From assembly GCA_037443265.1 (NCBI GenBank), contig JBBIOR010000005.1, forward strand, positions 18,546 through 82,545: 64,000 nt of DNA, read 5' to 3'. This stretch comes from Candidatus Fraserbacteria bacterium (GTDB lineage Bacteria; Bipolaricaulota; Bipolaricaulia; RBG-16-55-9). Made by a program: the position numbers. Shown here in pieces: positions 30,001 through 39,000 of the stretch (positions are counted from its first letter, which is position 1; every line of letters starts with the position of its first letter).

Positions 30001-33000
30001 GTGTGCAGATCGCTCACGATATCGCCAATATATTCCGTGGGCGTGATGATCTCTCCCTCCATGATGGGCTCCAGAAGCTCCGCCCGAGCGCGCGTAAAGG
30101 CCGTGCGCAAGGCGCGGGCCGCGGCCGTCTTAAACGCGATCTCTGACGAGTCGACTTCGTGATAGGAGCCGTAGTAGAGCGTGGCTTTGAGATCCGTGAC
30201 GGGGTAGCCCGCCAAAGGTCCGCTACCCATGGCCTCGAGAATCCCTTCGCGCACGGCCGGGATGTACTCTCGGGGGATGACACCGCCCTTGGTGGCATCG
30301 ACGAACTCGAAGCCTCCGCCCCGCGGCAAGGGCTCAAATTTAATACAGACGTGGCCGTATTGGCCGCGACCGCCTGTCTGTTTGATGAATCTCTCCTCGA
30401 CGTCCACCGGCTCCACCAGCGTCTCTTTATAGGCCACTTGGGGACGACCCATGCGCGCCTGCACATTGAACTCCCGCTTTAGGCGATCGAAGATGATCTC
30501 CAGATGGAGCTCGCCCATGCCCGCGATGATGAGCTGGTTGGTATCTGGATCTGTCTTCAGCTGCAGAGTGGGATCTTCTTGGGCTAGCTTGACGAGCGCC
30601 TCCGTGACCCTCTCTTCTTCCGCTTGGGATTTGGGCTCCACGGCTGCGAAGATGACCGGCTCTGGAAACTCAATCTTCTCTAGCAGAATGGGATGATCGG
30701 GGTCACAGAGGGTGTCCCCCGTAGAGAGCTCCTTGGGGCCGACGATGGCCCCAATGTGCCCGGCGCTGAGAGCCTCCACTTCCTGGCGCTTATTGGCGTG
30801 CATATGGAAGATACGCGCCACGCGTTCCTTCTTGCCCGTGGAGGCGTTCAGCACATAGGAGCCCTGATGAAGCGTCCCCGAATAGACGCGCACGTAGACC
30901 AGTCGGCCGGTGTATTCGTCCACGGCCACTTTGAAGGCCAAAGCGGCCAGAGGCTCATCGGGGCTGGGCTGGCGGACGATCTTCTGGGGTGCCCCTTCGG
31001 CAGGGCCGCCCATCACCGAGCCGGTGATCTGGCCGCGATCCAGAGGGGACGGAAGATAATCGACCACAGCATCCAAAAGGGGCTGGACTCCAATGTTCTT
31101 GAGTGAGGAGCCGCCCAAAACGGGTACGCAGCCCTTCTGGAGAGTCGCCCGGCGGATGGCTCGCTTGAGCTCTCCTTCAGAGATCTCTTCGTTGTTCAAA
31201 TACTTCTCCATCGCATAGTCATCGACTTCCGCCAGCATCTCAATCAAACGGGCGCGATATCGCTCGGCCTTGTCACAGAACTCCGGCGGGATGTCCACAT
31301 AGCTATACTGGATCCCTTTGGTAGCCTGGTCCCAGACGATGAGCTTCTTCTTGAGCAGATCAATCATGCCCAGGAGCTCATCGCCCCCTCCGGCCGGGAT
31401 CTGCAGCGGAAGAGGAATTGTGCCTAAGCGCTCCTCCATCATCTCGATGGTGCGCTCGTACTGAGCCCCAGGGCGATCGAGTTTATTGATATACGCCAGG
31501 CGAGGGATGCTATATTTATCCGCCTGGCGCCAGACCTTTTCCGTTTGAGACTCGACCATGTCGACGCCGGAGAAGATCGTAACGACTCCGTCGAGCACGC
31601 GCAGAGATCTTTCCACCTCGGCGGTGAAATCGACGTGGCCGGGCGTGTCGATCAGGTTGATCTGATGTTCGCGCCATTGGCAGAGGGTCGCAGCGGCCGT
31701 GATGGTGATGCCGCGCTCGCGCTCCTGCGGCATCCAGTCCATTTCCGTATCGCCCTCGTCGACGTCGCCGGGCTCGTGAATGATCCCCGCGTAAAAGAGG
31801 ATCCTCTCGGTGGTCGTCGTCTTCCCGGCGTCGATATGGGCGACGATCCCGATATTCCTCAACTTCTCGATCGTATGCTTCTGCTTCGCGCTTGTAGCCG
31901 TTACGACGTCTGCCATAGCTCGATCCCTCTTGGGAAATCCAACGCACTCTCTGGATGATTACCAGCGATAGTGAGCGAAGGGCCGGTTGGCCTCCGCCAT
32001 GCGGTGGGCTTCCAGTTTCTTTTCGTGGGCTTTGCCCTGACCCTGAGCGGCTTCCATCAGCTCTTCAGCCAAGCGCTGGGACATCGGCTTGCCCTTCCGC
32101 TCGCGGGCCGCCTGCACGATCCAGCGGATGGCCAGTGTCTTCTGCCGATCCTCTGGGACTTCGTAGGGCACTTGATAGGCCGCACCCCCCACCCGTCGGG
32201 AGCGGGTCTCCAGCTTGGGCATACAGTTACTAATAGCTTTATAGAAGATCTCTAGGGCCGGCTGGCCCGTGCGCTCCTCCACCCGATCGAAGGCCTCATA
32301 GACTATGCGCCGGGCCAAGGACTTCTTGCCGTCCTTCATCACAGCATTGATGAATTTCTCGACGAGTTTGCTGCCATAGCGCAAATCCGGATACAAGAAG
32401 GGCGCTTGATCTCGCCCCGTTCTGGTCCCAGGCAGCACCCGTTCTAACGCCTTATTGAGCATATTGGATCAAGGCCTCCATTAGCTGGAGGTGGAGGCGG
32501 CGGCTGACTTCTTGGCCCCGTACTTGGAGCGGCCTTGACGACGCCCTTCCACGCCGGCGCAATCGAGCGCTCCGCGCACGACGTGATAGCGCACGCCCGG
32601 AAGATCCGGCACACGTCCACCCCGCACGAGCACCATCGAGTGCTCCTGCAGATTGTGCCCCTCGCCCCCGATATAGGCCGTCACGTATTTGCCGTTGCTC
32701 AGTCTGACACGCGCGACTTTGCGCAAGGCAGAGTTGGGCTTCTTGGGGGTTCGGGTGAAGACTCGGGTGCAGACGCCCCGCTTCTGCGGGCACCCTTCCA
32801 GCGCAGGAGCCTTCCCCTTCCAGCCCCGCAGCTTTCGACCTTTACGAATCAACTGATTGATCGTCGGCATCTCCGCCTTCCTTTAAAAAACGATGGGATC
32901 AGCGCAAACCCGCTGATCGCGAGCTATTATAAGGGACGAGAAGCCCCCTGTCAAGCGCTCAGGGGCTGCTTTCCACCTGAGCTGAGCTCCTCTCCGAGCC

Positions 33001-36000: not shown

Positions 36001-39000
36001 ATCTTTCGTGGGCAGCGTCAGCGGCACACCACTGGCCGGCGAGAGGATATTGCGAGCCGACAGCATCAGCGCGCGCGCCTCAGCTATCGCCTCTGGAGAA
36101 AGAGGCAGATGGATCGCCATCTGGTCCCCATCGAAGTCCGCGTTGTACGGCGGACAGACGAAGGGGTGAATCTGGATGGCTTCTCCATCCACGAGCACGG
36201 GCTCAAACGCTTGAATGCCCAGACGGTGGAGCGTGGGCGCGCGGTTTAGCAGAACTGGATGCTCCTGGATCAATCTCTCGAGAATATCCCAGACCTCGGG
36301 CATCTCGCCGGAGAGGGCTTTGTTCTTGACTTCATCATAGTTGGAGATGGGGTGTGAGTCCTTCTGGGAGAGCTCGCGCAAAATGAAGGGCTTAAAGAGC
36401 TCCAGAGCCATCTTCTTGGGCAGGCCACACTGGTGCAATTTCAATTTGGGGTTGACGACAATCACCGCGCGGCCGGAGTAATCCACCCGCTTGCCCAGAA
36501 GATTCCTTCGGAGACGCCCATGCTTGCCCTGGATGCGCTCACTCAGGGATTTTAAGGGGCGATTATCCCGCCCTAAAATGGGATTGTCCTTCTTCTCGTT
36601 GTGGATGAGCGCATCGACGGCCTCTTGGAGCATGCGCTGCTCGTTGCGCAGAATGATTTCAGGCGCGCCCATCTCCCTAAGCTTCTTCAGACGATTGTTG
36701 CGATTGATAATCCTTCTATAGAGATCATTGAGATCGGTGGTGGCGAATTTTCCGCCCTCCAGCTGGACGATGGGGCGTAGCTCCGGCGGCAGCACCGGGA
36801 TGATCGTCAGCACCATATCTTGGGGCCGATTGCCCGATTTTCGCAGTTGCTCCACGACCTCGAGGCGCTTGAGCAGACGCTTGGCCCGCCCGGCGGAGGC
36901 CTCCCCTGCCACCTGGGCTCGAAGCTCCGCCGCCAAGGCATCGAGATCCAGATTGGCCAAGACGCCCTGGATGCCCTCCGCACCGGCTGCCACCTCAAAC
37001 TGCCTGGGGTAGAGCTTCTCATAAGCCCGGACCTCCGGCTCCCAGAGCAGATCGCCCACTCTAAAGGGCAGCACGGGATTCTTCACGTATGTGACGAGGT
37101 AGATCAGACTATCGACCACATCGCGCGCCCGCTGAGCTACCAGATCCGGATAGACCGCCTTTAACAGGTTCAACTGGGTCTCTGTGATCAGCTCGTCCGG
37201 GCCCACGGGGGAGGCCGCCAAGAGCTCCCCTGCCTCCACACGACTGCCTCTTTTGACTTCTAGTTGAGCAGAAGCAGTGACCAGGTGCTCTTCGTCTCCT
37301 ACCCGGACGACGCGCAGCGTCTGGCCGTTCTCCAGCTTCAGCTCATCAAAGGCCACGGGGCCGGCCGTCTTGGCCCGCACCTCAACGCCCGGCAGGACCT
37401 CATAGGCCGGCTCGGCGGTGAACTTCCTCTTGCGCTGCAGAATCTCATATTCGGAGCGATAGAGCCGATCGCCCACCGCCGGCTCGGATTCCTTAGAGGC
37501 CGTGACGAGAAAGATCTCTTCACTGAGGGACTCCGTCTCATAGTAGGCGATCTTCTTGAGCACGTTGCGCTTGATGCCCAACAGCGTGCTCAAGGGGCTG
37601 GAGATGCCCTTGATGTACCAGAAGTGGACCACAGGGCTGGCCAGCTCAATATGCCCCATATTGGAGCGCCGCACGTCCCGGGTCGTGACCAGAACATTGC
37701 ACTTCTCGCAGCGGATACCCTCGTACTTGCGCCCGCGGTACTTGCCACAGGCACACTCATAATCCTTCTCCGGCCCGAAGATCTCCTCGGCGTAGAGGCC
37801 GCCGCGCTCCGGCTTGTGCGTGCGGTAGTTGATCGTCTCCGACTCGGTGACCTCACCGTGGGACCAGCTCTTGATCTCCTCTGGCGAAGCCAAGCCTAGT
37901 CGAACCTTCGCGATGTCATCCCCTCGGATCAAGCGAATTCACCCCTCATCTCCTCTGGCGTCTCTGCCCACAACAGGCCCGTCCCGGAAGCGCATCGTCT
38001 TTCGGGTAGCTCAAAGACCCTTCCTCGCTAAAACGAAAGGGAAACCCAATTCATGAATGACTTGCAGCCGACGGAGCTCTCCCTGTTGCCGCCACCCATA
38101 AGTCCACTGGCTTACCGGGCCAGACGCCGTGACCCTCAAGTATATCAGAAAGTCGATCCGTTTCAAACCCCCTCGACCACGGCCAGATCTTCTGCGGGCA
38201 GTTCGGACAGAAACCGCGATGGGCCCTCCATCAGCACGCTTCCATAGAGGGAGCGCTGCTGGGCACAGGAGAGATAGAGCCTCCGGCGGGCGCGGGTCAT
38301 GCCCACATAGAGCAGGCGGCGCTCCTCTTCTAGCATACCCTCCGCCAGCGAGCGCGCATGAGGCATGAGATTCTCTTCGAGCCCCACGATGAACACATAG
38401 TCAAATTCCAGCCCTTTTGAGGCATGGAGCGTGATCAGCGCCACGCGCCCCGCCTCGGACGGATAGCGATCGATGTCCGAAAGCAGAGCCACATGCTCTA
38501 AAAACCCCAAGAGCCCTCCACCCCCTTTCCCCTCGAAATCCCTCATCTGGCCAAGAAGTTCGCGGATGTTGCCCAAGCGCTCTTCGCCCTCGGGACTCTT
38601 AGAGAGCTCTTTCAGATAACCTGTACGCTCTAGGAGCGTATAGGTCAGCTGGCTGGGCGGCAGAGACCGACTGAGTTCCCGCAGATCCTCCATCAAAGCC
38701 ACGAAGTCTTGGACCGACTGAGTCTGCTGGCCCTTGAGAATCCCTGCCGGCTGAGCGGCCGCTCGGCGCAGCGCCTCCCAAAGCGAGCACTGCTCTTGAG
38801 AAGATAGACGCTGCAGGGCTTCAATGGTCGCCCCTCCGATGCCGCGCCGAGGGCGGGCCAGAGCTCTGAGCAGACTGATCTCGTCCTCGGGGTTGGCAAT
38901 AGATTTCAAATAGGCCATCACGTCTTTGATCTCCCGGCGCTCGTAGAAGCGCAGGCCCCGCATGACTTCATAGGGGATGCGCGCGCGGATCAAGGCCTCT

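Follow-up and report, generated by a model that had tools for sequence, protein, structure and literature searches.

The omega subunit of RNA polymerase has been called universal among free-living bacteria, and the omega-less Mycoplasma and Ureaplasma have been called its likely sole exceptions (PMC9973325). Mycoplasma and Ureaplasma resemble Bipolaricaulota in having no rpoZ and an empty slot behind gmk, but differ from them in being host-associated and in having reduced genomes. The sole survey with exceptions (PMC13192885, Table S1; bioRxiv, May 2026) lists Chloroflexota and Patescibacteria as omega-lacking and warns that an absence of omega may be a false negative; Bipolaricaulota are not named in the accessible part of its supplement. 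Chlamydiae keep omega, and the chlamydial protein CTL0286, which is encoded immediately after gmk and could be found by BLAST, is a precedent for an omega missed by annotation (PMC9973325); neither its position nor its detection by BLAST has a parallel in Bipolaricaulota. As for RelA/SpoT, Bipolaricaulota share the lack of a long homologue with those PVC bacteria and endosymbionts that are RSH-less (Atkinson et al., 2011, PMC3153485); unlike Bipolaricaulota, the planctomycete and Kiritimatiellae genomes that we tested have kept omega.

Results

The window (the whole stretch of 64,000 nucleotides that was analyzed) belongs to a genome, G000, placed in Bipolaricaulota via rpoA. It carries the following features.

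15592..16566, minus strand: rpoA, alpha subunit, the basis for phylum placement
32959..37932, minus strand: rpoC, RNA polymerase beta', 1657 aa, an intact ORF
32959..33066, minus strand: IPAGTG motif and 29-residue low-complexity tail of beta'
34693..34695, minus strand: T1080, which replaces E. coli beta' E913
36052..36096, minus strand: helix after the active site, corresponding to E. coli beta' 474-488, here with P613, A617, A621 and R627
36124..36144, minus strand: catalytic NADFDGD motif, beta' residues 597-603, intact
38163..40118, minus strand: PcrA/UvrD helicase, 651 aa, directly upstream of rpoC, without a C-terminal Tudor domain

The rpoC gene heads the rpsL-S10-spc-alpha cluster and shows no linkage to rpoB, which is on contig C7 of the same genome. 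A zinc-ribbon gene upstream of rpoC in genome G001 was set aside; it is a Zn_ribbon_8 gene and is absent from that place in the window. As G000 is only 88% complete, the absences reported here rest on the phylum sample and on G001, which is a single contig and 99% complete. All evidence of absence is sequence-based, and the term free-living is itself a reading of the genomes of uncultivated organisms.

An earlier note on this DNA had claimed that omega is absent from the phylum, and this was borne out on a larger sample. With PF01192, none of 151 genomes gave a match above cut-off (searched to E<=1) and all 14 controls did. With TIGR00690, none of 184 genomes was above cut-off, weak matches (E 0.03-0.05) occurred in 2 of them, and 9 of the 14 controls matched. 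Omega, RelA_SpoT and TRCF were all present in the Thermotoga, Thermus and Deinococcus controls. An unfiltered six-frame search with a profile of 156 omegas remained at the level of reversed decoys, the best E values being 1.5 (G000) and 4.9 (G001) versus 0.76 and 0.27 for the decoys. Six omegas left out of the alignment in a 150-sequence version of this profile scored from E 4e-32 to 1.6e-3; the profile is biased toward proteobacterial omegas, and the Collinsella omega reaches E 1.6e-3 only. Also, none of the 161 small-protein pairs common to G000 and G001 scored with the omega profile, the 151 genomes yielded no consistent weak match at E<=1, and E. coli omega as a query brought up nothing beyond near-identical proteins of enterobacteria.

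Several candidates were rejected. The weak PF01192 matches at E<=1, among the 32 loci listed, were antisense or shadow frames in unrelated places. The best stray match (G140, E 1.4e-4) lacks a start codon and is antisense to a sigma-factor gene leader, which it overlaps; its DNA is kept in the 4 congeners tested, none of which gives a PF01192 match at that place. A fusion of omega to beta', Gmk or another protein was dismissed given the short beta' tails, which are unconserved across the phylum, the normal Gmk ends and the negative six-frame search.

The slot behind gmk was empty at 39 of 39 loci; at none of them did the 700 bases that follow the gene contain an omega-like frame. The order yicC-(remA-like)-gmk is kept, and acpS abuts gmk (within about -31 to +29 bases of its stop) in 25 of the 39 loci. 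Synteny and a broader profile, the tests feared for the claim of absence, did not reveal a hidden omega. A displacement of gmk by an archaeal-type kinase (TIGR02173) was also observed.

Positions 474, 478, and 482 of beta' (E. coli numbers) lie on one helix face, which we take, on the basis of E. coli and Thermus structures, to be the docking site of omega. Positions 482, 478, and 474 were the top three hydrophobic-to-polar shifts among 1210 beta' columns, a shift that is common to Chloroflexota and is also present in Patescibacteria. At 482, a hydrophobic residue was found in 60 of 66 genomes presumed omega-positive (a status assumed from taxon names and checked in a few), 1 of 30 Bipolaricaulota, 2 of 31 Chloroflexota, and 1 of 14 Patescibacteria; the corresponding counts at 478 were 62/66, 5/30, 6/31, and 3/14. 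Lys or Arg at 488 followed the opposite trend (0/66, 26/30, 16/31, and 7/14, in the same order). A second set of 67 Bipolaricaulota beta' sequences, partly overlapping the first, had hydrophobic residues in none at 482, none at 474, and 13 at 478. The beta' of the genome under study keeps Ala at 478 and 482, and is the sole exception of the 30 at the latter position. The invariant E479 and the PAGTG motif are retained, and the single Deinococcota beta' showed the omega-positive pattern. Of 5 tests of the signature against omega presence, one failed, as L413 has the omega-positive pattern yet no omega match; L386 combined a mixed beta' pattern with the presence of omega. A single-sequence fold prediction of beta' 345-811 was discarded for its low confidence (pLDDT 41.6).

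The replacement of E913 by Thr was tried as a marker of omega loss. It is phylum-wide but not diagnostic, and was rejected because residues other than Glu also occur in omega-bearing Zavarzinella, Collinsella, a Desulfobacteraceae and a Kiritimatiellae genome. Glu is kept at this position in 17 Chloroflexota.

No long RSH (a protein with HD, synthetase, TGS, and ACT domains) was found in the phylum. The ppGpp hydrolase domain HD_4 matched in none of the 149 genomes with a completeness of 80% or more and in 10 of 14 controls, and neither G000 nor G001 gave any HD, synthetase, TGS or C-terminal RelA/SpoT match. PF04607 was above cut-off in 3 of 184 genomes, G152 (two proteins), G092, and G046, and not in G000. 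These are predicted stand-alone small synthetases; their frames span 327-395 aa and bear no further Pfam domain above cut-off, and the G046 frame is broken by a stop. The absence of a long RelA/SpoT thus stood, but the wording "no synthetase domain of any kind" was too strong, since lone synthetase domains exist in these three genomes. Taken together, the genomes support the view that the phylum would have no canonical stringent response.

The absence of Mfd was confirmed as well. The TRCF domain PF03461 was above cut-off in 0 of 184 genomes (one match at E 0.007 contains an internal stop), and in G000 and G001 the E. coli Mfd query recovered nothing but RecG, UvrB, and weaker matches to helicases. 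CarD/RID was found in 0 of 5 genomes, as was the PcrA C-terminal Tudor domain PF21196, for which Thermotoga also had no match. The PcrA/UvrD of the window matches TIGR01073 over positions 2-637 of 725 and stops about 15 residues past the last conserved motif, an end equally short in its relatives. Rho was present in 5 of 5 genomes and two GreA-like genes are common to G000 and G001.

Discussion

We consider it likely, with a probability of roughly 0.8, that the ancestor of Bipolaricaulota lost rpoZ, the long Rel and mfd, that the phylum is apparently also devoid of carD and of the PcrA/UvrD Tudor domain, and that its core polymerase is most likely alpha2-beta-beta'. Besides the negative searches, which support a putatively omega-less polymerase in the phylum, the beta' footprint is positive evidence for a real loss of omega and not for a mere failure of detection. 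The 474/478/482 face, presumably the former docking surface of omega, would now be exposed to solvent, and beta' would fold without its omega latch, perhaps with the help of GroEL, as beta' folding is helped by GroEL in E. coli rpoZ mutants (PMC7700224). Stalled complexes may be cleared by Rho and Gre factors, UvrABC repair would proceed without transcription coupling, and ribosome-coupled (p)ppGpp would not serve as a starvation signal. The small synthetases, few as they are, are presumably sporadic acquisitions.

The losses were probably separate streamlining steps and not a single causal event. A causal coupling, which we hold to be possible though unlikely, would have a less processive omega-less polymerase release easily, so that the cell could dispense with Mfd, with the Tudor link of UvrD, and with release assisted by ppGpp. 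It would fit the lower processivity of E. coli polymerase without omega, the suppression of dksA, rho, and seqA defects under DNA damage by rpoZ deletion (PMC13192885), and the joint absence of all three polymerase-docking Tudor/RID-type factors. However, according to that preprint, neither mfd nor uvrD emerged from its screen, and omega-less Chloroflexota retain both Mfd and Rel (3/3). The presence of a ppGpp site where omega meets beta' is specific to Proteobacteria, and DksA was not found here, which also argues against coupling.

It is improbable that omega persists in a form too divergent to be recognized, at a site away from gmk, and that the polar beta' helix co-evolved with it. Diverged omegas have precedents in Chlamydia (PMC9973325) and in Elusimicrobiota and Spirochaetota (PMC13192885, Table S1), and the retention of E479 and PAGTG, as well as of Ala at 478 and 482 in the genome under study, would be compatible with such a partner. 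Yet the chlamydial omega could be reached by BLAST and sits behind gmk, where the slot is empty here; in addition, the weak matches were inconsistent, no shared small protein scored, and the best stray match was an antisense frame without a start codon.

A non-homologous, lineage-specific small protein replacing omega on beta' is less probable still. In its favour, a few conserved unannotated small proteins are available, and one of them, of 83 aa (G000 C17:13999-14250; G001 L191), has mostly Bipolaricaulota among its nearest Atlas clusters. That protein was rejected as it has no family, an unrelated gene context and a model resembling winged-helix domains with no omega among its structural neighbours, and solvent exposure is the simpler reading of a polar shift common to the three phyla.

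True omega loss, our preferred reading, is not unique to Bipolaricaulota among free-living lineages, as might be read from the earlier note, omega being detected in only 1 of 91 Chloroflexota and 0 of 61 Patescibacteria. These two phyla share with Bipolaricaulota the near absence of detectable rpoZ and the polar beta' helix, but in five of their omega-less genomes (three Chloroflexota, two Patescibacteria) the long RelA/SpoT is kept in 5/5 and Mfd in 4/5, which contradicts an obligate linkage of the three losses. Therefore, the novelty lies in the triple loss together with the beta' footprint. Bipolaricaulota branch close to the base of the bacterial tree; with neither Rel nor Mfd, and apparently with no CarD and no UvrD Tudor domain either, they define a minimal transcription system, which raises the question of how these slow-growing anaerobes sense starvation and clear stalled polymerases.

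We lean slightly toward a stripped system (with a core of four subunits, but without (p)ppGpp control or any recognizable transcription-coupled repair through Mfd, CarD or UvrD Tudor) in which omega was lost independently of Chloroflexota and Patescibacteria, with convergence on the same polar beta' footprint. If so, a three-residue rpoC signature could predict omega presence from sequence alone, and could also account for the folding of beta' when the latch is missing. Chloroflexota and Patescibacteria are sister groups (PMC8662615) and Bipolaricaulota have been placed beside Thermotogota (PMC9586279). As a single clade of all omega-less phyla was not rejected by the AU test (p-AU 0.25), the independence of the loss leans on these published trees. 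Our beta' tree grouped Bipolaricaulota with Deinococcota (support 92/92). One record titled Mycoplasma grouped with Bacillota in the tree and has omega.

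The rpoC locus and its genome

The genome (1.69 Mb, 44 contigs, 88% complete) encodes an RpoA whose nearest named records are Bipolaricaulota/Acetothermia (60–77% identity). Its beta' gene is intact and opens the rpsL-S10-spc-alpha (str/S10/spc/alpha) cluster, unlinked to rpoB, which lies on another contig downstream of rplJL:

32959-37932 (-), rpoC, beta' subunit, 1657 aa
Contig C7:11659-15054, rpoB

The same separation was found in G001, a Bipolaricaulota comparison genome (single contig, 99% complete). On C7, rplJ and rplL form a single 318-aa frame (15091-16047; record L545:92-1048, -) with L10 and L7/L12 both above cut-off. 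The L12 part retains its own ribosome-binding site and ATG, and the genes are separate in G001; the frame may result from loss of the stop codon or from misassembly. NusG (C7:17243-18328, 361 aa) carries a large internal insertion, and that of G001 is similar.

Apparent absence of omega

The earlier note held that the phylum lacks omega, any RelA/SpoT synthetase domain and Mfd, an observation that proved largely real and needed one correction. The absence of omega was borne out in our sample of 184 Bipolaricaulota genomes: PF01192 had no match above cut-off in 151 genomes, with the threshold relaxed to E ≤ 1 (controls 14/14), and TIGR00690 none in 184. Weak PF01192 matches were rejected as antisense or shadow frames at unrelated places; the best (genome G140, E 1.4e-4) was a 45-residue frame that lacks a start codon and runs antisense to a sigma-factor gene's leader. 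The genome search applies a prefilter, and a custom profile of 150 cluster representatives and six seeds was therefore run unfiltered on six frames of our genome and G001, where the best matches (E 1.5 and 4.9) were no better than reversed decoys (0.76 and 0.27). A version built on the 150 sequences recovered all six seeds (E 4e-32 to 1.6e-3), which were absent from its alignment but had been used to collect its members; the profile is biased to proteobacterial omegas, and its reach is thus limited.

Synteny pointed the same way. The gmk-rpoZ linkage, reported in 18,302 of 23,517 genomes, led to the chlamydial omega (PMC9973325). In Bipolaricaulota, gmk was above cut-off in 168/184 genomes, usually preceded by yicC and often by a remA-like ORF (names from sequence inspection). 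None of 39 gmk loci, counted after one duplicate was dropped, had an omega-like frame in the 700 bases 3' of the gene; the acpS start lay between about -31 and +29 bases relative to the end of gmk in 25, and an unrelated or convergent gene came next in the other 14. The beta' tails are short and the Gmk ends normal, and fusion of omega to either is therefore excluded.

In our genome gmk was not found, and the slot directly after yicC is occupied by another kinase:

C18:25451-25993 (L544:152-694, -), archaeal-type (d)CMP kinase, TIGR02173, 152.9 bits (cut-off 102.1)

Among the nine genomes of its family, this kinase is above cut-off in all five that lack gmk and absent from the four that have it. 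Given this mutual exclusion and the separate bacterial cmk of our genome, the enzyme is likely a GMP kinase; a limited literature search turned up nothing direct on such a replacement.

The presumed omega-facing surface of beta'

Our alignment, in E. coli numbering, comprised 149 beta' sequences; duplicates between searches were kept, and 8 uncertain sequences were set aside. Among 1210 scored columns, the top three hydrophobic-to-polar shifts were 482, 478 and 474, in Bipolaricaulota and Chloroflexota alike. These residues form an i, i+4, i+8 helix face immediately after NADFDGD, which we take, from solved structures, to pack on omega.

Residues of beta' by group (hydrophobic at 474; at 478; at 482; Lys/Arg at 488)
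Omega-positive, presumed from taxon names (66): 77%; 62/66; 60/66; 0/66
Bipolaricaulota (30): 0%; 5/30; 1/30; 26/30
Chloroflexota (31): 3%; 6/31; 2/31; 16/31
Patescibacteria (14, of which 12 are only 451-base stretches round the active site): 14%; 3/14; 1/14; 7/14

The region had first been spotted by eye, and the ranking therefore serves to check it and was not found blindly. A likelihood-based measure ranked 488, 478, 482 and 474 at 5, 6, 17 and 18, many higher ranks falling in a poorly aligned insertion region. In another 67 Bipolaricaulota beta', from genomes partly shared with the first set, 474 and 482 were never hydrophobic and 478 was so in 13 sequences; 66 had Lys/Arg at 488. The beta' of the window itself has Ala at 478 and 482, which counts against the footprint. 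Of five tests of the signature against omega, two omega-positive patterns came with omega, one negative pattern without it and one mixed pattern with it; one positive pattern had no omega match (L413, a possibly incomplete record). Replacement of E913 by Thr, tried as another marker of omega loss, is phylum-wide yet not diagnostic.

We consider it probable (about 0.8) that the polymerase core is alpha2-beta-beta', with the former omega site exposed and polar. E. coli tolerates rpoZ loss with the help of GroEL (PMC7700224), and its omega-less polymerase is less processive (PMC13192885). On these grounds, Rho and Gre factors may be enough for clearing stalls.

Docking factors and the stringent response

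The claimed absence of Mfd also stood: the TRCF domain was found in 0/184 genomes, and E. coli Mfd matched RecG and UvrB in our genome and G001. CarD/RID was missing from five of five genomes. The PcrA adjoining rpoC has no Tudor domain (PF21196, 0/5; Thermotoga is likewise without a match). Rho is present in 5/5, and two GreA-like genes, by inspection, are common to our genome and G001.

The claim that no synthetase of any kind exists in the phylum was wrong, as PF04607 was above cut-off in 3/184 genomes, always as lone synthetase domains:

L050, L051, L052, stand-alone RelA_SpoT-domain genes of G152 (pair), G092 and G046 (interrupted); sporadic

The interrupted G046 copy is closely homologous to one of the G152 pair, and mobile-looking genes (by inspection) surround the copies of G046 and G092; all of these RelA_SpoT-domain genes are possibly defence or toxin-antitoxin genes. 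The hydrolase domain was missing from all 149 genomes at least 80% complete, G046 and G092 included, and E. coli SpoT domains had no match in our genome or G001. By these sequence criteria, Bipolaricaulota have no canonical stringent response. DksA was not found. Free-living bacteria without RSH have been reported for PVC (PMC3153485).

Comparison with other apparently omega-less lineages

A recent preprint (PMC13192885, bioRxiv 2026) lists omega as missing from four species of Chloroflexota, four of Patescibacteria and two of Leptospiria, and cautions that absences could be false negatives; its supplement does not name Bipolaricaulota or Acetothermia, which its class-level Fig. 1A may show. 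Our counts agree, with omega in 1/91 Chloroflexota (1/90 without G218, an unpublished genome that underlies no other claim; the sole match looks betaproteobacterial by eye) and 0/61 Patescibacteria. Unlike Bipolaricaulota, these omega-less lineages keep RelA/SpoT (5/5) and mostly Mfd (4/5). Since the losses separate in Chloroflexota, a causal coupling between them seems unlikely. We found no published statement of these losses in Bipolaricaulota or of the beta' footprint in a search of mainly open-access literature.

In published trees the neighbours of Bipolaricaulota are Thermotogota and Deinococcota (PMC9586279), and that of Patescibacteria is Chloroflexota (PMC8662615), which implies two omega losses. 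Our beta' tree (34 selected rows, signature columns and insertion removed, no Thermotogota) agrees with these placements (supports 92/92 and 84/83) but does not reject a single clade of omega-less phyla (p-AU 0.25).

Other observations

ARAGORN found no tmRNA in the whole genome, where it may be unassembled or permuted, despite a SmpB-like gene (C16:20322-20774). A conserved 83-aa protein without family match (C17:13999-14250; L191:13719-13970), whose gene precedes a phosphomannomutase-like gene and leuS, has a winged-helix-like model, and its closest Atlas clusters are mostly Bipolaricaulota. Two loci of the window were also noted:

7956-11660, tyrosine recombinase (9725-10618) between two coiled-coil proteins, neither with a family above cut-off
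59141-60157 (+), alkyltransferase DNA-binding domain fused to endonuclease V
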